Shown piece by piece: positions 1-37,686 of a DNA stretch of 37,686 bases; positions within the stretch are counted from its first letter, which is position 1, and the number at the start of each line of letters is the position of its first letter. The notes beneath the pieces are model-generated. The model had not been told where the DNA came from and did not search any database. It worked only from the letters and a program-made list of their open reading frames with translations. Position numbers and translations under genes: made by a program. This DNA comes from a virus (lineage: Duplodnaviria > Caudoviricetes): positions 1 to 37,686 of the IMG/VR virus record IMGVR_UViG_3300020306_000007; one strand, written 5' to 3'.

Positions 1-117
1 GAGCCATTAGCAAAAAAATTTGATGAAGGTATAGGATTTATATTAGATGATGTTTATCAGCAGTCATTTAAAAAACATGCCTCTACTTATAGACAAGATC
101 AGGTAAAAAGAATTTTT
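1..117 (+). repeat. Terminal direct repeat, left copy (imperfect)
   Basis: Matches 37570-37686 at 108 of 117 positions. Confidence 0.95.
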
Positions 118-1236
118 GACTCACATGCTGGAAAATTAAAATTTTTAGAAGATCAAGGAATAAATTTAAATCCCATTATGAAATCAACAGATTTAAGAAT
201 AAAAAAATATAAATCAAGTATTGGCAATAAAAATATGATTGGCATTTTTAATAAACTAACAGGAAAAAAAATAGAGGGTGTGCCAGAGGGCATAAGTGAT
301 GGATCTTTTCTTGTGCCTTATGGACAAAGTGGCACAGAGTATATTCAAAATCTTTACAAAGAAATGTCAAAACCAACGATTGATAAAATAAAAACAAGAA
401 CATTAATTAATAGTGCAATAGATAAATTTAAAGTATCTGATTTTAATGCCTGGAAAAAAGCAGAAATGGAAAAAATATTTAATCCAGAAAAGTTTTTTGA
501 AAGCACAAATCCTTATGCATACAATCCAAATCCAAAATTTAAAGAATATGAATTAAACAATCTAGTTAATTACATGAAAAAACAGCGACAAATTGGTGGG
601 GAACAAGGAATGGGCTCTAAGGGAGTGGGCAGATTAAAATCTGTTTTAACAGGAAAATTTAAAAACCTGGATGAAGTTAAAAAAAATAAATCACAGCTTG
701 TCGATAAAGAATTAGCTGAAAATAAAGAATTGTACGAAAAAACTCAAAATGATTTTTTTGAAATTTCTGAGGATTTGTGGGAAGGCTCTGATAAAGCTAT
801 TAATCAATTTAGTTTTATAGACACAGTTAATGATCAAATTTTTGAGGCAATTCAAAGAGGTGGATCCAAAGACGCTATTAGAAAAAGTTTTGATTTTTTA
901 GGAGATCTTCCTAATACCCAGGTTAATAAAATAGAAAAATTTATAAAAGATTTAGAAAAAGCTCCTGTTGAATACTTTGAGGCAAAACCAACAAGAGCAG
1001 TAGGGTTAGATGAATTTGCTGGAGCAATAGTTCCAACATACACAAGTCCAGAAACTTTACAGATTTTAAAAAATCTTGGCTTGAGAAGAGAGTTTTATGA
1101 TCCTAGATACCCTAAAACTAGGATCCAAGCTAGAGAAAAATTTAATAAAGAAATGTTTGCCTATCCATTAGGAATTTTAGGTGGAGGATCTTTATTCTTT
1201 AATGCCCAGGATCAAAACAACAATACAGACATTTGA
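1..1236 (+). CDS. C-terminal part of a ~621 aa gene that begins at 36940 and crosses the junction; putative ADP-ribosyltransferase-fold protein
   Basis: Frame 1 is open from base 1 through the listed ORF 178..1236; contains YFEAKPTRAVGLDEFAGAIVP and a Gly-rich hydrophobic C-terminus. Function is inferred. Confidence 0.6.
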   Translation, partial: EPLAKKFDEGIGFILDDVYQQSFKKHASTYRQDQVKRIFDSHAGKLKFLEDQGINLNPIMKSTDLRIKKYKSSIGNKNMIGIFNKLTGKKIEGVPEGISDGSFLVPYGQSGTEYIQNLYKEMSKPTIDKIKTRTLINSAIDKFKVSDFNAWKKAEMEKIFNPEKFFESTNPYAYNPNPKFKEYELNNLVNYMKKQRQIGGEQGMGSKGVGRLKSVLTGKFKNLDEVKKNKSQLVDKELAENKELYEKTQNDFFEISEDLWEGSDKAINQFSFIDTVNDQIFEAIQRGGSKDAIRKSFDFLGDLPNTQVNKIEKFIKDLEKAPVEYFEAKPTRAVGLDEFAGAIVPTYTSPETLQILKNLGLRREFYDPRYPKTRIQAREKFNKEMFAYPLGILGGGSLFFNAQDQNNNTDI

Positions 1237-1249
1237 GGTAAAATAAGCT

Positions 1250-3379
1250 ATGCAATACGAAAATCAAGAAACAGATCTTCTTGTAGAAGAGGAACAAGAT
1301 TACACAGAACTAGCATCAATCATTAAATCAGAAATGGATGATGCCCAGGATTTTTCAGAAGAGCTGGGGCAAGAGAGATCTGAAAATACAGATTACTATC
1401 TAGGAGAGGAGCCAAGTGATACCAGCGAATTGCAATCAGAGTATGTTTCAACAGATGTTAGAGAGGCTGTATTACATATTTTGCCATCAATTATGAGAGT
1501 ATTTTTTGGCACAAAAAAAGTTGTAGATTTTATTCCTAAGAACAAAGAGGATGTAGCCCTGGCAGAACAACAAACAAATTATATAAATTACATCATTAAT
1601 CAAAAAAATAATGGTTTCCAGGTTTTTTATAATGCTTTTAAAGATGCTTTGATTAGGAAAGCTGGATTTGTAAAAGCATATTTTGATGATGGCTTACAAG
1701 TCACTAATCACAATTACACAGGACTAACAGAGATCCAAAAAGATGCTTTGATTTTAGATCCTAATGTTGAGGTTGTATCTCAACAAGCAGAAATGGAAAT
1801 GATAGAAACTGTTAATGAGCTAGGAGAAACAGTTGTTCAAGAAACTCCTGTTTCTTTTGATCTAAAAATTAGAAGGATCACAAACAAAAGCAAAGTTTGT
1901 ATTGATGCTATTCCTCCAGAAGAGATTTTAATCTCCAGGGATGCCAGGACAATAGAAACAGCCGAATATGTTGCTCACAGAAAAATTTGTCCTGTTTCAG
2001 ATCTAGTAGCAATGGGTTATGACAGAGAGGAAATGTTAGAACATGCTGGAGCTGGTAAATACGATAATGAAACTTACAATGAAACAGTTGCTAGAAATCC
2101 ATTTGCAGAGCCAGATAGCACAGATAGACCTGATGATGATATGCAAAATGTTTTATATGTTGAGCATTATGTTTTGTATGATCTTGATGATGATGGTATA
2201 GCTGAAAGAATTAAAGTTTGTACTATCGGAAATGGTTGTAGGATCATAAATGTTGAGCCATGTGATGTTTTACCAATCGCAATGTTTCAATCAGATCCAG
2301 AGCCTCATACTGTCGTTGGACAATGTATGGCTGATTATTTAAAAGGGATCCAAAGTGCAAAATCACAAATTATGAGAGATACCCTAGATAGCCTGGGGCA
2401 TTCTATTTTTCCCAGGATGGTAATTACTGAGGGGCAAGTAAATATTGATGATGTTTTAAATACAGATATTGGACAGCCAATCAGAGTCAGGACTCCAGGG
2501 GCAGTACAGCCTTTGAGTGTTCCCTTTGTAGGCAAAGATGCTTTCCCTGTTTTAAATTACCTGGATAGTGTTAAAGAAGATCGTACAGGCACATCAAAAG
2601 CCTCTGCTGGATTAAATGCAGATGCATTACAAAGCTCAACTAAAACAGCAGTTGCGGCCACAATGTCAGCCTCCCAGGGCAGAACAGAATTAATCTGTAG
2701 GCATTTTGCTGAAACAGGCATGAAACCATTGTTTAAAATTATTTATAACCTGGTTGTTAGGCATCAAAACCAGGAAGAGATGTTTAGATTAAACAATGAT
2801 TTTATTCCTGTAGATCCAAGATATTGGGATGCAGATAAAGATGTAGAGATCTCAGTTGCAATCTCCAAAACCTCTGATGAGGAAAAAGGTCAGTTTTTAA
2901 CTCAGCTAGTGCAAATTCAAAAAGAGGCATTTCAACAAATGGGAGGCAACAATCCCCTTGTGACTCCACAACAATTCTCAAACACACTAGCCAAATTGAT
3001 AGAACTAGCTGGGTTTAAAGATGTTAATGAATTTATTAATACAGAGGTCGTTGTTCCTCCACAAGATCCTAGCCAGGAGAAACCAAGTGGAGAAGAATTA
3101 CTAGCAATGGCTGAGTCTGAAAAGGCAAAAGCCCAAGCAAATAAGGCCATCCTGGATGCTGAAAATGACAGATTAAAAATGATGATGGATGATGATTTCA
3201 AAAGAGATCAAGCCAACACAGATGCTCTGTTAAAAGTTATGGAATTAAATGCTAAATATGGAACTGAATTACAAATGAATGAAGTAAATGCATATTTAGA
3301 AAGAGATAAAGAAGAAATTAGGCAAAGGAATAAAAATGGATCCATTGATGGAACTCTTCCTGGAAGAACAGAGATCTAA
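1250..3379 (+). CDS. Portal protein
   Basis: 709 aa acidic protein; YYLGE..SEYVSTDVREAV..LPSIMRVF and AFKDALIRKAGFVK portal-type motifs; lies after TerL; RBS gaggt. Confidence 0.9.
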   Translation: MQYENQETDLLVEEEQDYTELASIIKSEMDDAQDFSEELGQERSENTDYYLGEEPSDTSELQSEYVSTDVREAVLHILPSIMRVFFGTKKVVDFIPKNKEDVALAEQQTNYINYIINQKNNGFQVFYNAFKDALIRKAGFVKAYFDDGLQVTNHNYTGLTEIQKDALILDPNVEVVSQQAEMEMIETVNELGETVVQETPVSFDLKIRRITNKSKVCIDAIPPEEILISRDARTIETAEYVAHRKICPVSDLVAMGYDREEMLEHAGAGKYDNETYNETVARNPFAEPDSTDRPDDDMQNVLYVEHYVLYDLDDDGIAERIKVCTIGNGCRIINVEPCDVLPIAMFQSDPEPHTVVGQCMADYLKGIQSAKSQIMRDTLDSLGHSIFPRMVITEGQVNIDDVLNTDIGQPIRVRTPGAVQPLSVPFVGKDAFPVLNYLDSVKEDRTGTSKASAGLNADALQSSTKTAVAATMSASQGRTELICRHFAETGMKPLFKIIYNLVVRHQNQEEMFRLNNDFIPVDPRYWDADKDVEISVAISKTSDEEKGQFLTQLVQIQKEAFQQMGGNNPLVTPQQFSNTLAKLIELAGFKDVNEFINTEVVVPPQDPSQEKPSGEELLAMAESEKAKAQANKAILDAENDRLKMMMDDDFKRDQANTDALLKVMELNAKYGTELQMNEVNAYLERDKEEIRQRNKNGSIDGTLPGRTEI

Positions 3380-3551
3380 ATCTAAGATCTTTCACTTGGA
3401 GGCATTTGTCCAGGACTATGCCTATATTGGCACAGACATAAAAGCTGACTCGCTAGACGAGGCAGAGTTAATTTTAAAATCTGTCTTTGGATCTGCTTTT
3501 CCAGGAGATGATCCAGAGATTTACTGTTTATCAGAGGAGTGGGTACATTAA
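3336..3551 (+). CDS. Hypothetical protein
   Basis: 71 aa ORF whose stop overlaps the next start (taatg). Confidence 0.55.
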   Translation: MDPLMELFLEEQRSKSKIFHLEAFVQDYAYIGTDIKADSLDEAELILKSVFGSAFPGDDPEIYCLSEEWVH

Positions 3552-3817
3552 TGGCAACTAAAAAAGATCCAAGATTGAAAAGAGCTGGAGTATCTGGCTT
3601 TAATAAACCAAAAAGAACACCAAGCCATCCAACTAAATCTCATGTTGTTGTCGCTAAAGAAGGCGATAAGATCAAAACGATTAGGTTTGGACAGCAAGGA
3701 GTAAGGGGCGATAGAACTATGACTAAGAGAGCTAAGTCTTTCAAAGCTAGGCATAGGAAAAATATCGCAAAAGGTAAAATGTCTGCGGCCTATTGGGCTA
3801 ACAGATCGAAATGGTAG
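3551..3817 (+). CDS. Small basic phage protein (DUF5754-like)
   Basis: KTIRFGQQG...FKARH...SAAYWA..KW motif; start taken at ATG 3551 after gaggag. Confidence 0.7.
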   Translation: MATKKDPRLKRAGVSGFNKPKRTPSHPTKSHVVVAKEGDKIKTIRFGQQGVRGDRTMTKRAKSFKARHRKNIAKGKMSAAYWANRSKW

Positions 3818-3826
3818 GAGGAAACT

Positions 3827-3991
3827 ATGCCAGGTAAAAGAGGATTGTATGCGAATATCCATGCAAAACGAAAAAGGATCAAAGCTGGATCTAAAGAAAA
3901 AATGAGAAAGCCAGGATCTAAAGGGGCCCCAACAGCCAAACAATTTAAACAAGCGGCCAAAACTGCTAAAAAACCAAAGAAGAGGAAATAA
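3827..3991 (+). CDS. 54 aa Lys/Arg-rich mini-protein (not in ORF track)
   Basis: MPGKRGLYANIHAKRKRIKAGSKEKMRKPGSKGAPTAKQFKQAAKTAKKPKKRK; strong RBS aggagg. Confidence 0.8.
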   Translation: MPGKRGLYANIHAKRKRIKAGSKEKMRKPGSKGAPTAKQFKQAAKTAKKPKKRK

Positions 3992-3992
3992 A

Positions 3993-4073
3993 ATGCCAAG
4001 AGGAAAAGGAACTTATGGGAGCAAGGTAGGAAGGCCTCCCAAAAAAAATAAAAAGAAAAATAAAAAGAAATAG
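3993..4073 (+). CDS. 26 aa Lys-rich peptide with AT-hook-like GRP (not in ORF track)
   Basis: MPRGKGTYGSKVGRPPKKNKKKNKKK; RBS gagga; fills the gap between neighbours exactly. Confidence 0.7.
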   Translation: MPRGKGTYGSKVGRPPKKNKKKNKKK

Positions 4074-4079
4074 GTAGTT

Positions 4080-4442
4080 ATGTCTTTCGAGGATCACTAT
4101 CTTGAGTTATCTATTTTTCTTTTTAGTGTCCTAGGTGGACTTATGCTGAAAGATTATTCTGTTTCTTTAATCAAAGGATTAAAGTTCAAACTTAATTCTC
4201 AATTCCAGGAAGGACAAAAAGTTCTCCTGGAAGGGGAACAGGCAATGATCGTTAAGATAGGTTGGCAAGTGACAACTTTTGGAGTTTATTCTCCCAGGGG
4301 CTACACCTGGAGATATGTTAGTAATACAAAAATAGAAAGTTTAAAATTAGAAAAAATAGTTGATGCAGATCTTCATGTGGACTCAGCTCACGAAAAAGCA
4401 ATGAAACTTAGAAATATTTTAGAAGGTAAGGAAAGTGATTGA
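4080..4442 (+). CDS. Membrane protein with MscS-like beta domain
   Basis: N-terminal TM helix, then FQEGQKVLLEGEQAMIVKIGWQVTTF..WRYVSNTKI, resembling the MscS middle domain. Confidence 0.55.
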   Translation: MSFEDHYLELSIFLFSVLGGLMLKDYSVSLIKGLKFKLNSQFQEGQKVLLEGEQAMIVKIGWQVTTFGVYSPRGYTWRYVSNTKIESLKLEKIVDADLHVDSAHEKAMKLRNILEGKESD

Positions 4443-4857
4443 TAAATTTTTACAGCCCATAACAGGGATCATAGATAAATTAGTTCCAGATAAAACAAAA
4501 AAAATGGAACTTGAACATGCAATCAAAACTCAAATGTTTGAGTTATCTAAACAACAAAACGAAGTTAATTTAGCCCAGGCAAAACATGGATCCATTTTTG
4601 TAGCTGGGGCCAGGCCTGCAATCATGTGGATTTGTGCCCTGGGGCTTTTTTGGAGTTTTTTCCTGGCTCCATTATTAAATTGGGGTGTTGTTGTATTTGG
4701 AGTAGATATACAGCCTCCAACTATAAATACCGAAGGTTTAATGACTCTTACTCTTAGCTTGTTAGGTTTAGGATCTATGAGAAGTTATGAAAAGGCTAAA
4801 GGAGTTGCCAGGAACAACATGAGAGAAGAAAATACTAAGGATGCTTATAAACCATGA
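4435..4857 (+). CDS. Holin (3TM GTA-holin family)
   Basis: RPAIMWIC and LLGLGSMRSYEKAKGV motifs; TM segments; close to the endolysin. Confidence 0.85.
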   Translation: MIDKFLQPITGIIDKLVPDKTKKMELEHAIKTQMFELSKQQNEVNLAQAKHGSIFVAGARPAIMWICALGLFWSFFLAPLLNWGVVVFGVDIQPPTINTEGLMTLTLSLLGLGSMRSYEKAKGVARNNMREENTKDAYKP

Positions 4858-5039
4858 TGTTTATTACTGAAATAAAAGTTATTAAGTCTGATGGACTTGA
4901 AGAGATCCATAGTGGGCCAATTATCCAGGCTAGATCTCACAAAGAGGCACAAGAAAAAGCCAGGACAATGAATGCAGATCTAAAAGTTGTTGGCAAATAT
5001 ATTTCTGAATTAGAGGCTAATGATGAGTTGGCAATCTGA
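4854..5039 (+). CDS. Hypothetical protein
   Basis: 61 aa ORF overlapping both neighbours. Confidence 0.6.
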   Translation: MMFITEIKVIKSDGLEEIHSGPIIQARSHKEAQEKARTMNADLKVVGKYISELEANDELAI

Positions 5040-5418
5040 CAGCAAATGGCCAGCTCCTAACTTTTCCTCGGAAGAGTTGGCATGTTCGCATTGTGGAGAA
5101 GAAGAAATGGATCATGCTTTTCTAAAAAAATTACAAGATCTTAGATCTGATTTTGGATCTCCAATGATTATTACTTCTGCTTATAGATGTGAAGATCATC
5201 CCAACGAAAAATCAAAAAAAGTTCCTGGAGCACATTGCCAGGGCAAAGCAGTAGATATTTTAATAAATAGATCTGAGGCATACAGATTACTTAGCCTGGC
5301 ATTACAGCATGGCTTCACAGGTATTGGAGTTGCCCAAAAAGGTTATAACAATTCCAGGTTTATACACTTGGATTGGAATGTAGAAGATAAACCTAGACCA
5401 ACAATCTGGAGCTACTAA
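5020..5418 (+). CDS. Endolysin, peptidase M15A family
   Basis: NFSSEELAC..C, ITSAYRC..H, H-x6-D (AHCQGKAVD) and FIHLD zinc ligands. Confidence 0.9.
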   Translation: MMSWQSDSKWPAPNFSSEELACSHCGEEEMDHAFLKKLQDLRSDFGSPMIITSAYRCEDHPNEKSKKVPGAHCQGKAVDILINRSEAYRLLSLALQHGFTGIGVAQKGYNNSRFIHLDWNVEDKPRPTIWSY

Positions 5419-5916: not shown

Positions 5917-5979
5917 TTTTTTTAACCTGGATAGCTTTAGATTAAAAGTTAGAAAGGTTAAAATACAAACTATTGAGGT

Positions 5980-7005: not shown

Positions 7006-7028
7006 ACTTTTTTTAAGAGGATAAAATC

Positions 7029-7973: not shown

Positions 7974-7981
7974 TCAATTTA

Positions 7982-10946: not shown

Positions 10947-12071
10947 ATGGCCGATTCATTTAGTACCAATCTTAATTTAACCAAACCTGAGGTGGGAGCA
11001 TCAACAGATACCTGGGGCCAAAAAATAAATACCCAGGTTATTGATCCTATTGATGCGATATTTTCTGCAACAGGAACAGAGGTAAATGTAAGATTTAATT
11101 CAGCAAACTTTGACGATAACAAAAAAGCAATATTTGGCACAGGAGATGATCTGGAAATTTACCATGATGGATCTAATTCTGTAATTAAAGATGCTGGAAC
11201 AGGATCTTTAAATGTCCTGGCTAATATTTTTGATGTAAGAAAAGCAGATAACTCAGGATCCATTGCATCCTTTAATGATAATGGATCAGTTGCAATTACA
11301 GGAAATGTTGATGTCACAGGCAATATTACTGTTTCAGGCACAGTTGATGGTGTTGATATTGCCTCAAGAGATGCTGTTTTAACTTCAACAACTACTGCGG
11401 CCACAAATGCAAACACATTGGCCACAACTGCTAACACTACTGCAAATGCGGCCTTGCCAAAAGCTGGTGGATCAATGACAGGCTTACTCACAGCCGACTC
11501 AGGTGTAGCTATAGACGATATTACTATTGATGGCACAGAAATAGATTTATCTTCTGGAGATCTAACTCTAGATGTTGCTGGGCAAATTAATTTAGATGCT
11601 GATGGTGGATTTTGGAATTTTAATGATGGTGGTACCACAATCGGATATATAGAAAATAGCAGTAGTAATTTTGTTATAAGAAGTCATGTAAATGATAAAG
11701 ATATTATTTTTACAGGCACAGACAATAATACTGGAATTACTGCTCTTACTCTTGATATGTCTGAGGCTGGGGCGGCCACTTTTAATAATAATGTCACAGC
11801 TTTTTCAGACGAAAGATTAAAAGATAATATTGAAACTATAGAAAATGGTTTATCTAAAGTGGAGCAATTAAGAGGTGTCACTTACACTAGAGATGAGAAA
11901 AAAAATATAGGTGTCATTGCTCAGGAAGTAGAAAAAATATTACCAGAAGTAGTATTAACTGCTGATGATGAAATGGGCACAAAGTCTGTCGATTACAGCA
12001 GATTGACAGCAGTATTGATCGAGGCAGTTAAAGACTTATCAGGTAGAGTAAAAGAATTAGAGGGTAAATAA
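10947..12071 (+). CDS. Tail fibre with C-terminal intramolecular chaperone (peptidase S74)
   Basis: N-terminal LTKPEVGASTDTWG anchor; C-terminal SDERLKDNI..LRGVTY..GVIAQEVE..VDY..LIEAVKDL. Confidence 0.9.
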   Translation: MADSFSTNLNLTKPEVGASTDTWGQKINTQVIDPIDAIFSATGTEVNVRFNSANFDDNKKAIFGTGDDLEIYHDGSNSVIKDAGTGSLNVLANIFDVRKADNSGSIASFNDNGSVAITGNVDVTGNITVSGTVDGVDIASRDAVLTSTTTAATNANTLATTANTTANAALPKAGGSMTGLLTADSGVAIDDITIDGTEIDLSSGDLTLDVAGQINLDADGGFWNFNDGGTTIGYIENSSSNFVIRSHVNDKDIIFTGTDNNTGITALTLDMSEAGAATFNNNVTAFSDERLKDNIETIENGLSKVEQLRGVTYTRDEKKNIGVIAQEVEKILPEVVLTADDEMGTKSVDYSRLTAVLIEAVKDLSGRVKELEGK

Positions 12072-12871
12072 TGGCTTTACAAAGCTCAGGAGCTATCTCT
12101 TTAAATGACATCCATATAGAGGCTGGAGGAACTTCTGGTACTCAAGCATCAATTAATGATGCAGACATCAGAACAATGATTAACAAATCTTCTGGGGCTC
12201 AAGCATCTTTTTCAGAATATTATGGAGCTTCATCTAGCATAGCTACTATTAATTGCAATTTGACATTATCGAGAGAAACAATAGGAACTACATCAACTGA
12301 CTATAAGGGTAATACTACTTTTACTGCTACAGGTTATAGATACCATTTAGGTGTAAATAATTGGAATAGCATACAATCAAGCAATACAGGGATGTACGCA
12401 GTAAATCATTTTTTGGGAACTTATAGCTCAACAGCAACATCTGTTTCAGCCTCAGATAAAAATTTTATAGGATCTTTAGGTACTGGCACAAGTTATGACT
12501 CTTTAAAATTTAATCATTACACAGAAACAAATTTAAGCAATGTTAGTCAATCAAGAAATACCTATTTTAATATTTATGAAATAGGCAATGGGCCTTATAA
12601 TTATTTAACTCCAATCGCATCAGGATCAATGACTGCTCCAACATCTTGGACTAGCATTAATTTAAGTTTTTCTTATGGTGGAACAAACTATAGTTGGACT
12701 TGGACTAGAGCTAGTCATTTTAGCTATTTCAATTCTTTTGTTTATAACTTTGGAGGAACTTTATACACATCTGCTTATTTTGGTTTAGATCAAGGTGGCT
12801 CAACAGATTTTATTGGAGCTGGAACTAACACAAATATTTCCATAACAGGAGCAACATTTACAATTACTTGA
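12071..12871 (+). CDS. Tail fibre tip / receptor-binding protein
   Basis: MALQSSGAISLNDI..SFSEYYGA N-terminal adaptor; aromatic and Ser/Thr-rich beta C-terminus. Confidence 0.7.
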   Translation: MALQSSGAISLNDIHIEAGGTSGTQASINDADIRTMINKSSGAQASFSEYYGASSSIATINCNLTLSRETIGTTSTDYKGNTTFTATGYRYHLGVNNWNSIQSSNTGMYAVNHFLGTYSSTATSVSASDKNFIGSLGTGTSYDSLKFNHYTETNLSNVSQSRNTYFNIYEIGNGPYNYLTPIASGSMTAPTSWTSINLSFSYGGTNYSWTWTRASHFSYFNSFVYNFGGTLYTSAYFGLDQGGSTDFIGAGTNTNISITGATFTIT

Positions 12872-12872
12872 T

Positions 12873-13139
12873 ATGCATGAATATACAAAAAAAACTATAG
12901 ATGGAGTTGAATGGGTTTTTTATCAAAAAGACTCTGCAACTTTTGAATTTAAATTTATAGATGATGCAGATGCACAATCTCAAATAAATAAATTTTTAGA
13001 AGAAATACATATTGCAGAGCTCAAAGAAAAATATCCTGATACTTGGGAAGAAGAGTTAGCAAAAGAAAATGGATTAAGCGAGGAAGTTTCTTTAACTCCA
13101 AATTTAAATTTACCAATAGAAAATGTTGAGGAGATGTAA
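12873..13139 (+). CDS. Hypothetical acidic protein in fibre cassette
   Basis: 88 aa ORF tightly packed between neighbours. Confidence 0.65.
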   Translation: MHEYTKKTIDGVEWVFYQKDSATFEFKFIDDADAQSQINKFLEEIHIAELKEKYPDTWEEELAKENGLSEEVSLTPNLNLPIENVEEM

Positions 13140-13141
13140 AA

Positions 13142-13852
13142 ATGATTAGATACACTTTTGAAGGCATAAAAAATGTAAATATTGAAAATGAATTTCAAAT
13201 ATCTGTTGTTAAAGGAAATATTGGAGCAGAGATCTCAAGAACTGAAATAGAAGAACAGCCCAACTTTGACAAAATACAATATCTTGATGATTACAAAATA
13301 AATAAATCTTTAACTAATTATTTATTTATGGGTGGCAAAGTAAGTGTTCGTTATGAATTTGATGAAAGCGATAATATCTCTCAAAGAGATGTAGATAAAA
13401 TTATTGAGCTTAATAGAAAAAATCCAGAAGATACTCATTCCACAGAAATTGTCACAGATAATTCTTATGGTTTTGATATAGATTATGGGGGTTATGTGAA
13501 AGCCTGGAGAGAAAGATCAGCAGATTATGAGCTATCAACTAACAAGGCAAGTATGAAAGCTATCGAAGATGATACGATTATTATTTGCTGTTTGCAGAAT
13601 AACTATGGCTATAAATTTTACAATGTTGATTTAGATCCAGATGAAACAATAGAAACTCCCAAGATGGGAAATATTAATTTTTTATTAGTTGGTAATAAAT
13701 GTGAAGTCACAGTTCCCTCTCCTGATGTTATAGGAGAAGAGTTTAAATATAATTTTGATCAATATGATTGTAAAAAATTATCTAGTCAAAAATGTTTTGT
13801 AAAAAATGTAAGCGACAAAGTTTGTCGTGTTGTGATGCTATGCAGATCATAA
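13142..13852 (+). CDS. Hypothetical protein in fibre cassette
   Basis: 236 aa ORF; RBS aggag. Confidence 0.7.
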   Translation: MIRYTFEGIKNVNIENEFQISVVKGNIGAEISRTEIEEQPNFDKIQYLDDYKINKSLTNYLFMGGKVSVRYEFDESDNISQRDVDKIIELNRKNPEDTHSTEIVTDNSYGFDIDYGGYVKAWRERSADYELSTNKASMKAIEDDTIIICCLQNNYGYKFYNVDLDPDETIETPKMGNINFLLVGNKCEVTVPSPDVIGEEFKYNFDQYDCKKLSSQKCFVKNVSDKVCRVVMLCRS

Positions 13853-14592
13853 AAGGTATAAAATTTTTAAGAGCTTATGCCTCAGGCAAAAGCCATATTA
13901 ATGCAGATCTAAATTTGATTATGCAGATGGTGGATGAGCTCGATAGAGATTGCGATATAAAGTTAAAGAAAAAATTTAAAAGCCATCCTTACTCTAAAAC
14001 ATTTTATAACCAGGGAGATCTCAGAGCAGAAGTTTTAAAAGGCAGATATAAAAAAGGAACTTTTGGGAGTGAATTGAAAAAGTTTTGGAAAGAAAACAAA
14101 GAAGATCTGTTTAAAAAAAATTTAAACATTTCTAAAACAAAACATAAAAAAGATGTGGCTTACATGAAAGGTACATTGAACGAGCATGACATTATTCATT
14201 GCATTAACAAATTAGACTCAACACCTTTAGCAGAAGTTTCTGTTTTAGCTTTTACTATTGCCAAAGGTTTTAGATACAGTTTTTTTTACATACTCCTGGC
14301 AAGTGTTTTTATGGCTTTTAAAAATTCTTTTGGGAAAAAAGCTATTAAAGGTAGCTTGTTATTTAAAATAAAATATATGCCTTTTATAAGTGTAATTAGA
14401 TTAATAAAAGAGGCTTATGTAAATGGAAAAAAATCACAATGGTTTATGACTATTGATTGGAGAAAATATTTAGATAAGCCTTTTGAGGATGTTAGAAAAG
14501 AATTAAATATAAAAGATTTTCCTGTATGGGAAGATCTAAAACCTAAGTGGTATGAATTACTAGAAAGCTACAAAAAAATGGAAAGAATTTAA
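13840..14592 (+). CDS. Coq4-like metal-binding protein
   Basis: KGTFG..F and HDIIH-x11-E (HDIIHCINKLDSTPLAE) match the Coq4 HDxxH-x11-E signature; start taken at ATG 13840. Confidence 0.65.
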   Translation: MQIIKGIKFLRAYASGKSHINADLNLIMQMVDELDRDCDIKLKKKFKSHPYSKTFYNQGDLRAEVLKGRYKKGTFGSELKKFWKENKEDLFKKNLNISKTKHKKDVAYMKGTLNEHDIIHCINKLDSTPLAEVSVLAFTIAKGFRYSFFYILLASVFMAFKNSFGKKAIKGSLLFKIKYMPFISVIRLIKEAYVNGKKSQWFMTIDWRKYLDKPFEDVRKELNIKDFPVWEDLKPKWYELLESYKKMERI

Positions 14593-22528: not shown

Positions 22529-22701
22529 TGGCTTTTGACATACAAAAAAGATCTTTAAAAAAATCTAAAAAAAACACCTGGAGCAGATCAATGAGATCTG
22601 CTCCTGGCACAAAAAAATTTGCACAGAAACTTGGTACACCTGGAGCCAGGAAAATTGCAAAACAATATCTTATCCAGGAAATGAGAGAGGTTATGCAATG
22701 A
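22528..22701 (+). CDS. 57 aa basic protein (not in ORF track)
   Basis: MAFDIQKRSLKKSKK...EMREVMQ; RBS ggagg; taatg and atga overlaps at its ends. Confidence 0.65.
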   Translation: MAFDIQKRSLKKSKKNTWSRSMRSAPGTKKFAQKLGTPGARKIAKQYLIQEMREVMQ

Positions 22702-22991
22702 GAACAATATTTAGTTTAGCTGAGAAAGGCAGAGCTAGTTATTTCGATATAAAGAAAAGGGAAGATCAATATATCTTTTTAATTATGCTTCCTAATGTTG
22801 GTGGGGTTAGACCTATTTGCAAAAATGAAAAAAATCTTAGATTGAAAACTATAATCAATACTAAGATGGATTGGTGTGATATGAGTCTTAAAGAATATCT
22901 CAACAATTCAGAGAATGAGCAATACTATTGCCAAACTTTGAAGGGTAAAACACTTTGGAAAAGAATTAAAAAAACTTTGGAGAAAATATGA
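22698..22991 (+). CDS. Hypothetical protein
   Basis: 97 aa; RBS gaggt; overlaps the integrase start. Confidence 0.65.
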   Translation: MRTIFSLAEKGRASYFDIKKREDQYIFLIMLPNVGGVRPICKNEKNLRLKTIINTKMDWCDMSLKEYLNNSENEQYYCQTLKGKTLWKRIKKTLEKI

Positions 22992-24049
22992 GAACTAGAA
23001 CTACTGATAAAAAATTTAATGGCTTGTGCTGGATCACTAGACACATCAAAGATGATCCTTCACAGCCAACATACACAACTTACTTTGCCAAAATTCCTAA
23101 TGGCAACAAATCTCCCAGGCTAGTTAAAGTTGGATCTGACAAAGATCAACTTAGCCTGGCTGTTTTAAGAGAGAGAGCTAAAGATGAGATCAGCAAAGTA
23201 AGTACCAGGGGAAACTCTGATCATACTCTTAACTCATTTTTTGATGAGATCTTTATCAAAGATAGGGAAAGAAAAAAAACTGAAACTCTCAGGCATTTCT
23301 TTTATATGTGGGATAACAATATTAGAAATACCCTGGGCATGAAAAGAATGGTAGATCTAGAAACTATAGACATTTACCAGGAGTTTATGAAGATCTCCGA
23401 AAGATCTGAGTCAGTTGCAAACAAATGCTTACAACACATCAAATCTTGTTATGCATTAGCTATGGATCTTGGCTTGGTTAAATTTAATCCAGCTAGTTCT
23501 GTTAAGAAAAATGCATCAGAAAACAGGATCAGATTTTTTAATGCTGATCAGACAGTTAGATTTAAAAAGGCATTGTTTTCATTAGGAGAGGATCACAAAT
23601 TTGCTACAGCTCTGATCTATGCTCTTTACTTAACAGGAGCAAGATTTGGAGAGCTTAGAGATGCTAAATGGTCAGATCTACATGGAAATAAAATCGTTAG
23701 ATCCAAACACAAAACTAAAAAAATTACAGGTCAGGATCGTATTATTTATTTATCTCCAGAGGCTATGGATCTGATCAACAGATTGCCCAGAGATAACGAA
23801 TACATTTTTAACTGTAAATATGTCAAAACTGCCTGGAATAAAATCAGAGAGATTGCAGATCTTAAAGAGTTTCACTTGCACGATTTAAGACACAACTTTT
23901 GTACCCAGGCTATCAACAATGGTATAGATCTAATCAGAGTTGGTAAATTGGTCGGTCATAAGTCTGTCGAAACAATGGAAAAATATGCCCATGTTTTAGA
24001 TCAGACTTCTGACAACGACATCAAACAGATTGGCAATCTTTTAAGCTAA
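22988..24049 (+). CDS. int: Tyrosine integrase
   Basis: Catalytic R (TGARFGE), K (KTK), HDLRH, VGH and Y (EKYAH); N-terminal arm-binding-like and core-binding regions. Confidence 0.92.
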   Translation: MRTRTTDKKFNGLCWITRHIKDDPSQPTYTTYFAKIPNGNKSPRLVKVGSDKDQLSLAVLRERAKDEISKVSTRGNSDHTLNSFFDEIFIKDRERKKTETLRHFFYMWDNNIRNTLGMKRMVDLETIDIYQEFMKISERSESVANKCLQHIKSCYALAMDLGLVKFNPASSVKKNASENRIRFFNADQTVRFKKALFSLGEDHKFATALIYALYLTGARFGELRDAKWSDLHGNKIVRSKHKTKKITGQDRIIYLSPEAMDLINRLPRDNEYIFNCKYVKTAWNKIREIADLKEFHLHDLRHNFCTQAINNGIDLIRVGKLVGHKSVETMEKYAHVLDQTSDNDIKQIGNLLS

Positions 24050-26578: not shown

Positions 26579-26781
26579 TGGTTGAAGATCTAATTAAGTT
26601 GTTAAAGGAGATCTCTGATCAACTTGATAGCTTTAGACAGGAGAATGGTGGGCTAGACATGGAAAATGAACAGCACACAGATTTTCCTACAGGAACTATG
26701 AAAAGTTTAGATCTCATACAACATGAGATTGATACTTCAATAGATTGGCTTGAAGATCCTAATACTTATGATCCAGGTTAG
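26578..26781 (+). CDS. Hypothetical acidic protein
   Basis: 67 aa; taatg overlap with upstream gene. Confidence 0.6.
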   Translation: MVEDLIKLLKEISDQLDSFRQENGGLDMENEQHTDFPTGTMKSLDLIQHEIDTSIDWLEDPNTYDPG

Positions 26782-26832
26782 CCCTGGATCTAGGATCTTT
26801 GTTTTTAATAATAAAAAAGTAAGGAGGTCAAA

Positions 26833-31983: not shown

Positions 31984-31992
31984 AATTACCTC

Positions 31993-32219: not shown

Positions 32220-32234
32220 TGGTGGAGATCCTTC

Positions 32235-32519
32235 TTAATCCAGGCTGGGGGGGTTAGCCTGGCTTGTTTTGGTTTTAGGAGAGAATGAAGGATCTCCTGT
32301 TTCTTGTATTCTAGTTTGTAATTGATAATTTGTATAACTCAACAATGCAACTAGCAATCTCGTAGCCTCTGGTTTTAAGGATCCTGTTTCCCCTGACTCC
32401 CAAAAGTTTATTAATTTTTTTATGACTTCAATCATTACTTTGTCATTGACTGCATAATCGTCAGCATAAGCATCAAAGAAATCTTGTGCCATTATATTTA
32501 GATCATTTGTATTAACCAT
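32235..32519 (-). CDS. Hypothetical protein
   Basis: 94 aa; RBS aggag; overlaps the glycosyltransferase stop. Confidence 0.65.
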   Translation of the reverse strand: MVNTNDLNIMAQDFFDAYADDYAVNDKVMIEVIKKLINFWESGETGSLKPEATRLLVALLSYTNYQLQTRIQETGDPSFSPKTKTSQANPPSLD

Positions 32520-33393
32520 AATTTTTGCTCCTGGTCTTTACTAACTTCATACCATATTCATTAATCCCATCTGGGATCTCTAAGCCTGGTATTTTTTTTA
32601 GTGGGTTATCTTTAAAAGAACTGTAATCAACTTCGTGATGCCATCTGCCATACCTGAAAACCAATGATGTTATTTCAGGATGCATATCAACTAACATCTG
32701 AGATTTATTTTTAGTTCCTTCTCCATCATAAAACTCTGCTGAGTTTCCTCCTCTCATTGTTGATGTTCTAAGTTTGTTTTGTAAAAAAGCCTGGAACAAT
32801 AATGTTGCCCAGCCATCTTTTAACATTCTTAATGAGAGATCTGTATCTTCGTTGTATCTGCCTCTCCATCTGTAAGGCACATCATTTCTAATTAAATTAC
32901 ACGAATAAATCCTGGTGTTTGTTCTGTAAGGAGGTTTTTTTCTCCTGGATCCTCCAGCAAAAAATCTGTATTCAAATCCAGACATGGCTATATTTTCATA
33001 TCTATCAACAAAATCTTCTGATGCTCTAAATATGGCTCCAGATCTACAATTAATTCTTTCGTTGCGATTAAATCTACAGAAACCAGCGATATTATCATCC
33101 ATTACCCAATGCTTATCGTGTCCTTGAGCAATAGAGTGATCCCAAGCATAGTTCCTGGCTCCTCCAGGCCCTTTCCTGGGATCATCATCTTTCCAAAAGG
33201 TATCATACTCATCTAGATACTTTTTAGGCAGTACCAGGAGCTTATCTTCGCCTAAGGATCTTGCATAAAGATCAAACTCTTGCTCTTCTACTATTACCTG
33301 GTAAGGAACATTCATTAGATCTAAATGCTTTGCAGTTATGGGATTTTCATATCTGCCTTTTGATGGGATATAAATTGGAGATCTAGGTTTCAT
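32512..33393 (-). CDS. TET-associated (TAGT / GREB1-like) GT-A fold glycosyltransferase
   Basis: IYIPSKGR, ARNYAWD, HWVMDDNI, RIYSCNLI, WRGRYNEDTDLSL, GGNS motifs. Confidence 0.8.
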   Translation of the reverse strand: MKPRSPIYIPSKGRYENPITAKHLDLMNVPYQVIVEEQEFDLYARSLGEDKLLVLPKKYLDEYDTFWKDDDPRKGPGGARNYAWDHSIAQGHDKHWVMDDNIAGFCRFNRNERINCRSGAIFRASEDFVDRYENIAMSGFEYRFFAGGSRRKKPPYRTNTRIYSCNLIRNDVPYRWRGRYNEDTDLSLRMLKDGWATLLFQAFLQNKLRTSTMRGGNSAEFYDGEGTKNKSQMLVDMHPEITSLVFRYGRWHHEVDYSSFKDNPLKKIPGLEIPDGINEYGMKLVKTRSKNYG

Positions 33394-33649
33394 CTATATA
33401 CTCCATTTTGTCTTTATCAATGACAGGAAAAAATATTCCCTTGGTTTCCATTGTGATATTTCTGCCTATCAGATCTGAAAACTTTTTCATATCATCCTCA
33501 GTTTCAAAACTTATGACAATTTGTTTGATAGCCTCTTTATTCTCACAAATATATTCAGGCATTTGTTTCCATTCAGATCTCCAGCTCTCATCATCCTTGT
33601 TAAGAACTTTAGGATCTGGCAGTTCAAATAATTCTTTTTGGATCTCCAA
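33383..33649 (-). CDS. Small partner protein of the glycosyltransferase
   Basis: EWKQMPEY..IVISFETEDD..F..LI..IT..TK.IFFP; TTG start; overlaps the GT start. Confidence 0.7.
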   Translation of the reverse strand: MEIQKELFELPDPKVLNKDDESWRSEWKQMPEYICENKEAIKQIVISFETEDDMKKFSDLIGRNITMETKGIFFPVIDKDKMEYIDET

Positions 33650-33871
33650 CTAATACTCCTCAACATTAGCCTGGTACTTATCTGGATTTTCAGATCCATT
33701 TAAGATCTCAGGATCTTGTTCTCCTCTTTGCAAAGACAAATGATCATTTCTTAACATTGCTCCCATACTTTTAATTTTTGCTGTCCATTGCTTTGGGATC
33801 CATAAAGTGACTTTGACTAATCCTTGCTCCTTTTGTTTTTGTTCGTATCTATTCTGTGGTTTATATTTCAT
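33650..33871 (-). CDS. Small basic protein, possible ribbon-helix-helix DNA binder
   Basis: RYEQKQKEQGLVKVTLWIP; start taken at ATG 33871. Confidence 0.55.
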   Translation of the reverse strand: MKYKPQNRYEQKQKEQGLVKVTLWIPKQWTAKIKSMGAMLRNDHLSLQRGEQDPEILNGSENPDKYQANVEEY

Positions 33872-34151
33872 TTGGCATTTCTCCGAAAATTTCTGGGTGG
33901 TTGATAACATGATCTGCAACTTCACAAATAAGACGATTTCTTATTTCCTCATCAAAGTTGTAATGTTCTATTCGTTGTTTGAATTGTGATGGAAAGTTCC
34001 AGATAGGAATACTATCTTCCCATTTATAAAAATAAAATCTCAATGACATCTTTTGCCCAAACAACTCAGACAATGTTTTGGAGTGACAGACATGCAATGA
34101 TAAGCCAGATCTTGTTTCTCTAGATCCAGAGAGCTCATAAACATTATTCAT
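33861..34151 (-). CDS. Hypothetical protein
   Basis: 96 aa ORF overlapping neighbours. Confidence 0.6.
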   Translation of the reverse strand: MNNVYELSGSRETRSGLSLHVCHSKTLSELFGQKMSLRFYFYKWEDSIPIWNFPSQFKQRIEHYNFDEEIRNRLICEVADHVINHPEIFGEMPNEI

Positions 34152-34350
34152 AATACTCTCTCATCCTGAGCTGATCTGCTCTGAAAGTTTTTGTTTCAAC
34201 TTCTCGCTTTTCCTCATCATAAAGTTTGTAGCGATCTCCAGGCAATACTCTCCAAATAGTACATTTGAAAGTAGTACCTTTCCTCCAAACACGATCATTG
34301 ATCCTATATGTAGATTGTGGCTCTACAAAGCCATCCTTATAAATACTCAA
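34144..34350 (-). CDS. Hypothetical protein
   Basis: 68 aa; TTG start; beta-rich. Confidence 0.55.
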   Translation of the reverse strand: MSIYKDGFVEPQSTYRINDRVWRKGTTFKCTIWRVLPGDRYKLYDEEKREVETKTFRADQLRMREYYE

Positions 34351-34352
34351 AC

Positions 34353-34598
34353 TTAAAATGGATTTTTGTATTCAATTTCCCTTGGCTCCCAGCTACTAAC
34401 CTTTTTCTCAACTCTTTGGAAATCAGTCACTAGCAAAGTTTCGCATCCAGGAACTTCCTCTTCACATTGGATCTTTACATCTTGATAGCCTTTGGATATT
34501 AAATTATCTGCCTGGCTAACAGCTTGATCTTTATTTTCGTAAGCAACAACTAAAGAGCTCTCAATAATTGGCTCGAAAAAACTAACTTTATAAAACAT
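34353..34598 (-). CDS. Hypothetical protein, first gene of the leftward operon
   Basis: 81 aa; strong RBS taaggagg. Confidence 0.7.
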   Translation of the reverse strand: MFYKVSFFEPIIESSLVVAYENKDQAVSQADNLISKGYQDVKIQCEEEVPGCETLLVTDFQRVEKKVSSWEPREIEYKNPF

Positions 34599-34621
34599 AA
34601 AACCTCCTTATGTCTTGATCA

Positions 34622-34664
34622 ATAGTCACATTATCGTTCATAGGAATACTATTAGTCAAACTAT
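34622..34664 (-). promoter_or_regulatory. Leftward promoter overlaid by three operator-like palindromes
   Basis: Minus strand TTGACT-18 bp-GATAAT; ATAGT-N3-ACTAT variants at 34622, 34640 and 34652. Confidence 0.6.
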
Positions 34665-34735
34665 GTAAAAGATTAAAACTCTTCGCTGTTCTTATAAATC
34701 AACAGCATTTATAATTATCGGAACAAAATTGAACT

Positions 34736-35260
34736 ATGAATGAACAAAAGAAAAAGCCTGGTAGAAAAATGAAAACACTTGGAGAAGAGCATGTTGAACA
34801 GATCATTCAGCTTGGAGCTCAAGGTTTAGGCATCATGCAGATCTGTCAGGCTTTAGATATATCATGGGATGTTTTCAACAGAGAAAGGGGTAAAAAGGAA
34901 ATATCGGAAGCCTTAAAAAAAGGCCAAGCACTTGGGATCAAGGCAGTCACAAATTCTTTGTTCAATCAAGCAACTAATGGGAAAAATACTGTGGCCTCCA
35001 TCTTTTATTTGAAAAATCGAGATCCAGATAATTGGGCAGATAAACAAGAAACAGAGGTCAATATCAATTTAAGAGAGATCTTAGACAATGCATCAACAAG
35101 AATTAGTGAACAGCAAGTGAACACAATAGATATAACACCTGAAAAGCCTTTAGATATAGGGAATGACAAAGAGATCCTCATCCCTAGTAAGAATGATAGT
35201 GAAATAATCCAGGATCCAGAGGAGAGATCCTCCAGATCTAGAGATCTAAAAGATGATTGA
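34736..35260 (+). CDS. terS: Terminase small subunit
   Basis: KPGRK plus HTH, EALKKG..SLF..A..G..ASIFYLKNR..W.DKQE; upstream of TerL. Confidence 0.8.
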   Translation: MNEQKKKPGRKMKTLGEEHVEQIIQLGAQGLGIMQICQALDISWDVFNRERGKKEISEALKKGQALGIKAVTNSLFNQATNGKNTVASIFYLKNRDPDNWADKQETEVNINLREILDNASTRISEQQVNTIDITPEKPLDIGNDKEILIPSKNDSEIIQDPEERSSRSRDLKDD

Positions 35261-35403
35261 GCAAAGTCTATTCTCCATCTTATCCAATTTGCTTTTTCAT
35301 TTAGAGGGAGCCCAGATTTTCTCCGATTTTGGGCCCCCTCGATTTTCCTGGAGCCCCCATAGTTATATTTAACAGTAGGATTAAAATTTTTTAATTTTTT
35401 TAT

Positions 35404-36939
35404 ATGAAATATTCAGCACAAGACGAAAAAAGATTAATGTCAGAAATTTGGAGCATGGAGATTAAGAACTCTCCTCTCAAATTTGTAAAATATATTTTTG
35501 AGTGGGGCAAAGAAGGTACCCCCCTGGAAAAATTTACAGGCCCAAGGAAGTGGCAAGAAAAAATTTTGAAAGAAATGGAGATCCATATTGCCAGGAACAA
35601 TGGAGAAATGGATCCATCAATGTTTAGAAAAGCAGTTGCCTCTGGTCGTGGCATAGGAAAGTCAGCTTTTGTGTCCTGGATCGTATTATGGATGTTATCT
35701 ACCAGGCTTGGATCTACTGTTATTGTCACAGCAAACACAGAACAACAGCTCAGATCCAGGACATGGGCAGAATTAGGAAAATGGATGACTCTTGCTCTTA
35801 ACAATCATTGGTTTGTTAGATCTGCGACAACAATAAAACCAGCTCCCTGGTTTGAGGAACTCTTAAAAAGGGATCTCAAAATAGACACAGGTTATTACTA
35901 TGCTCAGGCACAGCTTTGGTCAGCAGAAACTCCTGATGCTTTCGCTGGTGTGCATTCTCATTATGGCTGTATGCTTTTAATGGATGAGGCATCTGGTATT
36001 CCTCAAAATATTTATTCTGTAAGTGAAGGATTTTTTACTGAGCCAATCGAAGATCGTTATTGGTTTTGCTTTTCTAACCCCAGGAGAAATACAGGGCCTT
36101 TTTATGAGTGCTTTCATAGTGCCAGGAGCTTTTGGTCAGGAGATCAAATAGACTCCAGGAAAGTAGAAGGTACTGATAAAGAGCTTTTTAATTCTATGAT
36201 TGAGCAATATGGAGAAGATAGCACAGTTGCCAGGGTAGAAGTTAAAGGAGAATTTCCTACTGCTGACTCAGATACAGTCGTTCCCCTGGATCTAGTCAAA
36301 TCGGCAGTAGAAAGAGATGTTGCCCTCCAAACATCAGCTCCAATTATTTGGGGTTTAGATGTTGCCAGGCAAGGAGCTGACAAATCTGCTCTTTGTATTC
36401 GCCAGGGAAACCATGTGCTTGAAATACAAACTATAAATTCTCCAGATCTGATGCAACTTTGTGGAAGGATCAAAGCCAAATATGACGAAGAGCAGTCTAT
36501 GAATAGACCACATGAAATTTTAGTGGATGCAATCGGATTAGGAGCTGGGGTAGTAGATAGGCTCCTGGAACAAAATTTACCTGTTAGGGGTATTAATGTT
36601 GCAGAGGTACCCAGCACAAAAGGAACATATTTAAATCTTAGGGCAGAGCTCTGGTTTAAGATAAAAGAATGGTTGGGGGGAAGAGATGTTAGGCTCCCTG
36701 ATGATGATGGCCTGGTAAGTGAGATCTCTTCCCCTATCTATAAATTTAATTCAACAGGCAAAATAAAAGTTGAGTCAAAAGAAGATATGAAAAAGAGAGG
36801 AATTAAATCTCCAGACAAAGCAGATGCCCTGGCATTAACAATGGCTAGTGAAGGAGCATCTTTTGGAGGATCTAAAGAAAGTTTTATGGGGTATAATTTC
36901 AGGAAACCTCTCAAATCAAAAATTTTACGAGTCGGATAA
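35404..36939 (+). CDS. terL: Terminase large subunit
   Basis: ASGRGIGKS Walker A, MDEASG Walker B, SNPRR, GLDVARQGAD nuclease motif, SPDKADAL. Confidence 0.95.
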   Translation: MKYSAQDEKRLMSEIWSMEIKNSPLKFVKYIFEWGKEGTPLEKFTGPRKWQEKILKEMEIHIARNNGEMDPSMFRKAVASGRGIGKSAFVSWIVLWMLSTRLGSTVIVTANTEQQLRSRTWAELGKWMTLALNNHWFVRSATTIKPAPWFEELLKRDLKIDTGYYYAQAQLWSAETPDAFAGVHSHYGCMLLMDEASGIPQNIYSVSEGFFTEPIEDRYWFCFSNPRRNTGPFYECFHSARSFWSGDQIDSRKVEGTDKELFNSMIEQYGEDSTVARVEVKGEFPTADSDTVVPLDLVKSAVERDVALQTSAPIIWGLDVARQGADKSALCIRQGNHVLEIQTINSPDLMQLCGRIKAKYDEEQSMNRPHEILVDAIGLGAGVVDRLLEQNLPVRGINVAEVPSTKGTYLNLRAELWFKIKEWLGGRDVRLPDDDGLVSEISSPIYKFNSTGKIKVESKEDMKKRGIKSPDKADALALTMASEGASFGGSKESFMGYNFRKPLKSKILRVG

Positions 36940-37686
36940 ATGAAAAATTTATTAATGCCACAGTCAAAATATAGAATAGAGTCTTATGAGCCCTCTCCTG
37001 GGCAAAAAAGAACTGAAAATATGTCTAATTTTTTACAGGCTATTGGAGGTTTTACAGATCGCAACAACATACCTTTTTTAAGTTCTTTTGCAGACGAAAG
37101 AAATGCATATCGAATGGCTAACAAACTTAATAATGCTTATGAAACAGTTGGAGATTTTATTCCAGGGCTTTCTTATGAGTTAGCAAAAGAGAGAGAGGAT
37201 GATTTAGGACAAAACCTGGCTATGTTGGATCTAATTCCTGGAGGAGCTATACCAAAACAAGTAGTTAAGAAAACTATTAAAGATGCAGACGAAGTTAAAG
37301 ACATGATGTTTTTGCATAATACAAGCTCAGAGGCTTTAGAAAATTATCAAAACTTAGGAGGATTGCCATCTCCCAGCATGGCAGTCACACAAAAGGATCT
37401 TCCTTTTGAGGGTTTTGGAGATATTACTTTAGTTGGTAAGCCAGGCAATTTTGATCCTAAAGTTTCTGCATCAAATAAAATTTATAGCTCTGATGCTTAT
37501 ACTCCAAGAGCTCCAGCTCCTATACAAACTACTAAAAGAAATGCTTATGATTATTTATTAGAAAATTATGAGCCATTAGCGAAAAAATTTGATGAAGGTA
37601 TAGGATTTATATTAGATGATGTTTATCAGCAGTCATTTAAAAAACATGCCTCTAGTCGTAGGCAAAATCAGGTAAAAGAAATTTTC
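36940..37686 (+). CDS. N-terminal part of the junction-spanning gene; putative ADP-ribosyltransferase-fold protein (not in ORF track)
   Basis: ATG directly after the TerL stop and open to the window end; FLHNTSSEAL..LGGLPSPSMAV..FGDITLVG..DP..IYSSDAYTPR; in frame with base 1 via the repeat. Confidence 0.65.
   Translation, partial: MKNLLMPQSKYRIESYEPSPGQKRTENMSNFLQAIGGFTDRNNIPFLSSFADERNAYRMANKLNNAYETVGDFIPGLSYELAKEREDDLGQNLAMLDLIPGGAIPKQVVKKTIKDADEVKDMMFLHNTSSEALENYQNLGGLPSPSMAVTQKDLPFEGFGDITLVGKPGNFDPKVSASNKIYSSDAYTPRAPAPIQTTKRNAYDYLLENYEPLAKKFDEGIGFILDDVYQQSFKKHASSRRQNQVKEIF
37570..37686 (+). repeat. Terminal direct repeat, right copy (imperfect)
   Basis: Matches 1-117 with 9 substitutions and no indels. 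Confidence 0.95.

Follow-up and report, generated by a model that had tools for sequence, protein, structure and literature searches.

The closest described parallels to the genome reported here are the cyanobacterial HIPs (HIP1 and the alternative HIPs) and the CCGG excess of Helicobacter. According to the excerpts of the literature on which our comparisons draw, HIPs are methylase-type palindromes over-represented in coding as well as non-coding DNA, and which word is involved switches from lineage to lineage (PMC4390886, PMC5861425); our phage shares both features. Elhai's model ties such palindromes to the gain of a cognate methyltransferase and allows for the excess being a by-product (PMC4390886). 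In Helicobacter, one restriction-type word is enriched and many others are avoided, a combination that recurs in our phage; its authors propose that methylation is advantageous (PMC4687349). Phages are usually expected to lose restriction sites or to ignore them. That many type II-like sites are eliminated completely, as they are here too, is known from dsDNA phages, mainly non-temperate ones, and the available part of that survey describes no type II site that is strongly hoarded in them (PMC6286503).

The window analysed is the whole stretch of 37,686 nucleotides, the 37.7-kb genome of a marine, podovirus-like phage. The genome looks complete, with a CheckV completeness of 100% and ends that overlap by 116 bp at 93% identity. 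An assembly artefact was ruled out, since the pattern recurs in relatives from other samples and the TAGT slot is bridged by contigs of other runs. Searches of the phage found no tRNA or att-like RNA, and no RNA holder was listed when one was looked for. The features that matter for the argument are as follows.

1..37686, no strand: excess of RGATCY and CCWGG, whole genome
1..37686, no strand: purge of other restriction-type words, whole genome
12071..14592, plus strand: tail-fibre-associated low-GC block, sparse in both motifs (GATC 4.8 per kb, CCWGG 1.2 per kb)
22988..24049, plus strand: tyrosine integrase, 23 GATC (3.5 expected) and 7 CCWGG
26770..26800, no strand: motif cluster pointed out by the initial annotation, 3 GATC and 2 CCWGG
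32512..33393, minus strand: TAGT-family predicted DNA glycosyltransferase (PF20691)
33383..33649, minus strand: small ORF, a TAGT companion in many phages, part of the swappable slot
35404..36939, plus strand: terminase large subunit (terL), 14 GATC and 16 CCWGG (1.5 CCWGG expected)
36940..37686, running on into 1-1236 over the genome ends, plus strand: PBECR5-like gene, which fits a circular or complete map

The initial annotation had reported a strong enrichment of GATC and CCWGG. Its count for the integrase proved exact, those for terL and the 26770-26800 cluster were confirmed, and the enrichment is larger than first reported: genome-wide, base composition predicts 123 GATC and 24 CCWGG, and 424 and 192 are present. 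The codon-shuffled controls that it had proposed did not give similar counts, since synonymous shuffling of the 55 ORFs yields 236±9 GATC against 412 observed and 59±5 CCWGG against 180. When eight such shuffles were also made to forbid absent or nearly absent words (the avoidance-constrained null), expectations rose to 262-282 and 67-82, so that both words stay above all three nulls. Under this last null the GATC excess is really one of RGATCY (260 in ORFs against 110-132), and GATC outside RGATCY shows no excess (152 against about 150); genome-wide, 269 of the 424 GATC sites are RGATCY. A decoy, GCGGCC, behaves differently from RGATCY and CCWGG: its excess is fully reproduced by the constrained null (18 against 18-19) and was rejected as true hoarding, being a forced by-product of Ala-Ala. 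The 1977 intergenic bases hold 21 GATC and 14 CCWGG. Even spacing and short periodicity were ruled out, as the spacing of the motifs is Poisson-like (CV 1.03), the pattern of a random process.

The excess alters which codons are chosen and is accompanied by a change in dipeptide use. The Ile codon ATC is used in 63% of cases when preceded by G against 12-21% elsewhere, Leu is encoded by CTN in 84% of cases following GAT against 36-37% elsewhere, and X-Gln-G is encoded with CCAGG at 34% against 1%. The Asp-Pro dipeptide stands at 1.9-2.05 times expectation in the clade of the phage and at 0.93-1.25 in other groups. Words one step away from the motifs are mostly undrained relative to the codon shuffle, which agrees with the prediction of selection. 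At the other extreme, words wholly absent though at least 10 copies of each are expected number 4 among the four-mers, 45 among the five-mers (10 of these free of CpG) and 97 among the six-mers (46 free of CpG; 15 palindromes), the counts of longer words including those that contain a shorter absent one. CpG itself stands at 0.2 of expectation. Type II-like words lie near zero, as in restriction-site avoidance, and many of the purged words are non-palindromic. The low-GC block nearly obeys the same rules, with two hits of avoided words.

All 17 close-relative loci, some of which come from the same phages, are enriched (GATC 2.7-4.7, CCWGG 4.7-10.2). The density of the motifs is maintained while individual sites turn over. 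At 80% identity, 0.56-0.57 of GATC and 0.34-0.47 of CCWGG sites are retained, not clearly above control words (0.12-0.65), which counts against a reading by selection. In a comparison of lineages on a quick MCP tree, the palindromes hoarded by sister lineages are others (GGCC, GCGC, GCWGC and GCSGC), which cousin lineages lack altogether, so that the hoarded words switch lineage by lineage; all words hoarded across the family are, we presume, typical methylase targets. The idea that a phage C5-methyltransferase drives the excess of GCGC seen in relatives was unsupported: the gene occurs in 3 of 16 records, L055 has it with GCGC at 1.0, and the complete L068 has GCGC at 3.1 without it.

The search for a host gave no usable lead. 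Cultured phages offered no close match (about 51% at best for terL, about 31% for the integrase), a search of GTDB genomes with the integrase was negative, and none of the integrase homologues carried a host name. Matches to terL at 72-74% occur on a Flavobacteriales and a Saccharibacteria contig within MAGs; both are probably binned phage DNA, and the Flavobacteriales contig shows no motif excess. When the patterns were counted in 401 genomes and afterwards in 30, all Pseudomonadota, no chromosome matched the phage. AT-flanked CCWGG peaks at about 98 per Mb among the 401 chromosomes (G404 is included, its own count unused) against about 210 in the phage (8 sites), and RGATCY at about 106 per Mb among the 30 re-tested chromosomes against 716.

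The initial annotation held that the phage is selected to accumulate modified sites and that these might be self-modified or serve as handles for further modification. The first half stands in part, the excess being non-random, dependent on context, extended into protein sequence and made of methylase-type words, with selection and host modification as inferences; the second is unsupported. Six-frame profile searches of the genome (PF00145, PF01555, PF02086) and Pfam/PHROGs scans of the 55 ORFs bear out its statement that there is no methyltransferase, but it overlooked the TAGT gene, a DNA-modification-type enzyme (153.8 bits, E 7.5e-45). That the words are handles for TAGT glycosylation, or for a methyltransferase of the slot, present or past, could be argued from this gene, from the amino-methyltransferase that the siblings L003, L005 and L164 carry where our phage has TAGT and the small ORF, from the full enrichment of both cassette genes, and from the marine viral m4C motifs, which include CCWGG (PMC8919816, in part). 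Nevertheless, the excess is equal when the slot holds TAGT, the amino-methyltransferase or, as in L004, nothing. Self-modification as its cause is unlikely because neither enzyme goes with joint enrichment elsewhere (0 of 80 TAGT loci, 0 of 78 slot-methyltransferase loci). The TET dioxygenase and C5-methyltransferase partners of TAGT were not found in the genome, and a sister lineage that hoards CCWGG has a different, ParB-fused methyltransferase in 2 of 4 partial records. Moreover, hypermodified coliphages show no site avoidance in the available part of PMC6286503, whereas our phage purges heavily. PDB sequence searches with both enzymes were uninformative. GATC is a known Dnd motif, and L003 has a PAPS-reductase-like ORF, so phosphorothioate marks might be considered; they are highly improbable, for CCWGG is not covered, the excess is limited to RGATCY, a PADLOC scan of 29 ORFs of the window gave no match to Dnd, and the PAPS-like gene is absent from the 37,686-nt window and carries no CCWGG. 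The Dam label of the initial annotation fits as poorly as its Dnd label, the excess being tied to RGATCY rather than independent of the flanks.

Three further explanations invoke neither enzyme of the slot. In favor of very-short-patch repair of the Vsr type at 5mC sites, CCWGG is the classic Dcm/Vsr word, and GATT/AATC stand at 0.79 of the codon-shuffle expectation. This Dcm/Vsr route is very unlikely: CTAGG (0.93), CTTGG (0.87) and the outer-C neighbours of CCWGG (0.99-1.04) are hardly depleted, GATA (0.81) is as low as GATT, and the pool of T precursors is too little drained to feed a 3-fold excess. Avoidance of many words, some perhaps longer or gapped, could funnel the sequence into the few that are allowed; it accounts for GCGGCC, forces CCWGG at Pro-Gly and slightly lifts the constrained expectations. 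As the source of the main excess it is improbable, since RGATCY remains at 2.1x and CCWGG at 2.4x, relatives at 80% identity avoid fewer words yet are about equally enriched, and L189 and L190 avoid a different set and hoard the same words. The main rival, possible but doubtful, is a HIP1-like neutral ratchet, in which host methylases mark new sites and repair guided by the methyl marks makes gains permanent and undoes losses, multiplying the words with no benefit to the phage. The random spacing, the sparser motifs of the low-GC block and the lineage-wise switching all fit, the integrase allows long residence in a host, and the process is in line with Elhai's model (PMC4390886, in part). That model, however, requires G-meC, which, read from the sequence, is absent from both CCWGG and RGATCY; no sampled chromosome is equally enriched, though the host may lie outside the sample, and the near-total purging is what one would expect of a phage whose genome was molded mainly while not in a chromosome (PMC6286503, in part).

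We tentatively favor, at a probability of roughly 40%, the reading that RGATCY and CCWGG are host-methylated sites under weak positive selection. The two words are likely targets of methyltransferases that are a constant feature of the host lineage, and would thus be methylated and safe as part of the permanent methylome of the host population, while the purged words would be those cut by its variable restriction systems. Weak selection would then likely favor every additional methylated site if methylation dampens the action of nucleases from which purging offers the phage no escape, candidates being those with long or gapped sites and methylation-sensing defences. The gain per site may be small, yet large marine phage populations could act on it. 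It would be weaker than that from avoidance, because the low-GC block, probably newer, is almost free of avoided words and not yet enriched. Nothing in the Poisson-like spacing points to selection for evenly distributed sites. In Class 1 DISARM, targeting rises with the number of unmethylated sites, and protection against phages did not scale with site number (10.1101/2021.12.28.474362); thus, as far as the accessible text goes, no known system rewards density. Mutation or repair bias also predicts much the same equilibrium as selection. A stronger version, which we consider rather unlikely, is a methylation "passport": lineages would pile up the target words of the permanent methylases of their host because a missing-self defence, as yet undescribed, would destroy DNA with too few methyl marks. 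If true, the hoarded and purged words together would be a readable record of the host methylome and restriction arsenal.

In our literature search, no phage family turned up in which motifs alternate between being purged and being hoarded. A family in which the same words move between zero and up to 8-10x points to a second, positive force on methylase targets. With small phage genomes and many sister lineages, the question of selection versus repair by-product raised by HIPs becomes testable, and the hoarded and purged words could help to predict the hosts of uncultured marine phages.

Compared with HIPs (on the available text), our palindromes likewise lie far above compositional and codon nulls, but here two unrelated words are hoarded by a phage genome without its own cognate methylase, at 2-8x rather than 15-300x, with no G-meC inside the words; a HIP-type periodicity would be one of 10-90 kb, and the phage shows no spacing pattern at the scale that 37.7 kb allows. 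Helicobacter, in turn, is a bacterial chromosome with its own R-M genes and a ratio of about 1.4-1.5 (PMC4687349, in part), and the excess in the phage is stronger. With the TET/C5-MTase/glycosyltransferase pathways of hypermodification, as far as these are set out in the accessible part of 10.1101/2023.12.21.572611, our phage shares the TAGT-family gene; TET and C5-MTase were not found here, and the excess does not track the enzyme. Finally, in contrast to the site avoidance described for dsDNA phages, the phage reported here has an integrase, purges extensively and hoards two words.

The initial annotation had described GATC and CCWGG as strongly enriched; its counts proved exact on recount, and the enrichment is real, strong and wider in extent than first noticed. 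Across the whole window, GATC occurs 424 times against 123 expected and CCWGG 192 times against 24, and a maximal-order Markov null ranks them first among 4-mers and 5-mers, respectively. The excess also survives a synonymous-codon shuffle of 55 ORFs (GATC 412 versus 236±9; CCWGG 180 versus 59±5). Since the genome forbids many words, we added a constrained null in which the absent and nearly absent words were also forbidden during codon shuffling (8 samples). This null reproduces a decoy excess, GCGGCC, which is forced at Ala-Ala, and yields just 262-282 GATC and 67-82 CCWGG in the ORFs. The observed 260 RGATCY stand against 110-132 in this null and the remaining 152 GATC against about 150; the enriched word is therefore RGATCY, not GATC. 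Codon choice in the window shifts toward the hoarded words, and in the window clade Asp-Pro is found at about twice its expected frequency.

At the other extreme, 4 four-mers, 45 five-mers and 97 six-mers are at zero in the window though each is expected at least 10 times (longer words containing a shorter absent word are included). Examples are CCGG, GCGC, ACGT, GCWGC, GGWCC, CASTG, GAGAC and GGTGA, along with many palindromes of 6 bases; there is a single GAWTC. We take these to be restriction-type words, and the window hoards two such words while purging dozens of others. The capsid relatives L189 and L190 purge harder (35-38 near-absent non-CpG 5-mers versus 13; AGCT and CATG at zero). TATAAT/ATTATA is depleted in window ORFs (9 versus 41 expected), as expected from avoidance of sigma-70 -10 boxes.

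The portal, capsid and adaptor genes of this genome (37,686 bases, 35% GC, rated 100% complete) are of SU10 type, and it also encodes an integrase, a Sak4-like recombinase, a primase-helicase and a terminase. Within one gene, its two ends share a 116-base overlap at 93% identity, and contigs from three further runs extend beyond 37685 into sequence that by eye resembles the window start. Most datasets containing it are marine metagenomes, and its terL is about 51% identical to that of the nearest phage-collection record. Three further features, and the swappable slot as found in the window and its siblings, are as follows.

Window 36940-37686 and 1-1236: large PBECR5-like gene that separates terL from the portal gene in the window, L001 and L004 but is missing from L002 and L003, whose terL and portal genes are adjacent
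Window 3829-3990 (+): lysine-rich frame of <60 codons amid late genes, conserved at the DNA level in L004-L006; possibly a small basic DNA-binding protein
Window 22529-22697: intergenic, upstream of the integrase module, an inverted repeat made of CCWGG and GATC words; candidate regulatory or attachment region
Window 32512-33649: slot, TAGT glycosyltransferase and small companion ORF
L003 4434-5450 and L005 1787-2806: slot, 338-residue SPPY-type amino-MTase
L004 about 990: slot, empty

As had been claimed, the phage lacks a methyltransferase: six-frame searches of the window for C5-MTase, N4/N6-MTase, Dam-family MTase and TET came back empty. The proposal that the sites are self-modified was not supported, since these siblings (terL identity 95-99%) are all enriched whatever the slot contains, and both words are enriched (thresholds: GATC 2.5, CCWGG 4) in none of 80 loci with TAGT relatives and none of 78 other loci carrying a member of the slot MTase family. 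The phage's own enzymes do not explain the excess. Both cassette genes carry the enrichment themselves and have therefore long been under the same force. TAGT without TET looks common, with no TET or C5-MTase match among 59 scanned flanking ORFs of TAGT loci (chosen from 89 listed). For the nearest homologues of the slot MTase (L266-L277), every locus has GGWCC at 0.0-0.3 of expectation; because the window and many relatives lack GGWCC as well, this does not reveal the enzyme's target. PAPS-reductase-like accessory ORFs occur in L003 (1241-2119, +, NCBIfam) and L347 (5720-6535, -, by eye only).

All 17 close-relative loci examined are enriched (duplicates L163, L165, L166, L173, L175 and L186 excluded; some loci are from the same phages). 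Both words are enriched in none of 75 terL relatives at 71-78% identity, many of which carry GCGC at up to 7.4x, and in 4 of 75 capsid relatives (L189, L190, L195, L196). Other capsid relatives favour CCWGG and GGCC without GATC (L191-L194, L225), GCSGC and CCGG (L200-L206) or GCWGC; L198, L199, L208-L210 and L230 have no CCWGG, and L199 has no GATC either. In a quick capsid tree (57 rows; loci <7 kb and identical proteins excluded), one well-supported group (SH-aLRT 98) unites the window clade, the CCWGG+GGCC clade and unenriched loci including L006, L188 and L252, and the states have therefore switched more than once. Four partial records of the CCWGG+GGCC clade contain no C5 or Dam-family MTase, and two of the four carry a ParB-fused amino-MTase. 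Four terL relatives at 72-75% (L024, L392, L399, L406) show a CCWGG excess of 5.0-5.4x without one of GATC, possibly further separate gains of CCWGG. A C5-MTase lies beside the primase in L015, L030, L075 and L055; its presence does not track GCGC excess.

The force on these words differs by lineage, does not depend on phage enzymes and is directed at methylase-type words, which suggests that host methylases define the hoarded words. Host methylases would set the words, and weak selection would favour methylated sites, a reading to which we give a probability of roughly 0.4. We place it above a HIP-like ratchet, in which methyl-directed repair pumps the words up with no benefit to the phage and which we consider rather unlikely, because neighbouring words are undrained, the effect reaches protein sequence and the window phage exceeds every sampled chromosome in enrichment; the ratchet ranks second among the readings. 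The one-step T-neighbours of CCWGG stand at 0.87-1.04 of expectation, arguing against a simple Vsr pump; GATT (0.79) is low, but so is GATA (0.81). Counting against weak selection, the search for a host came up empty, spacing is random rather than even (CV 1.03 for GATC; for CCWGG 1.22, including a single 2.3-kb gap), and site conservation is not clearly above controls: single sites turn over between relatives, with 56-57% of GATC sites and 34-47% of CCWGG sites retained at 80% identity, within the control-word range. In addition, DISARM protection against phages did not scale with site number, according to 10.1101/2021.12.28.474362. A low-GC block (12071-14592) has 4.8 GATC and 1.2 CCWGG per kb versus about 11 and 5 genome-wide, yet only 2 avoided-word matches, from which purging would be fast and hoarding slow.

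No report of RGATCY/CCWGG hoarding by phages, or of lineage-wise flips, was found in a literature search that left subscription journals mostly uncovered. Two papers list CCWGG and GGCC among the methylated motifs found exclusively in marine viral MAGs (PMC9516812) and describe m4C at CCWGG in myovirus-like MAGs (PMC8919816), so these words can be methylated in marine viruses; the motif tables of both papers may also be relevant to the host. PMC4687349, PMC6286503, 10.1101/2023.12.21.572611, PMC4390886 and PMC5861425 were also drawn on. Since the test for an in-genome methylase was negative, the window case is not classed with the highly iterated palindromes (HIPs) of cyanobacteria, although the two work alike.
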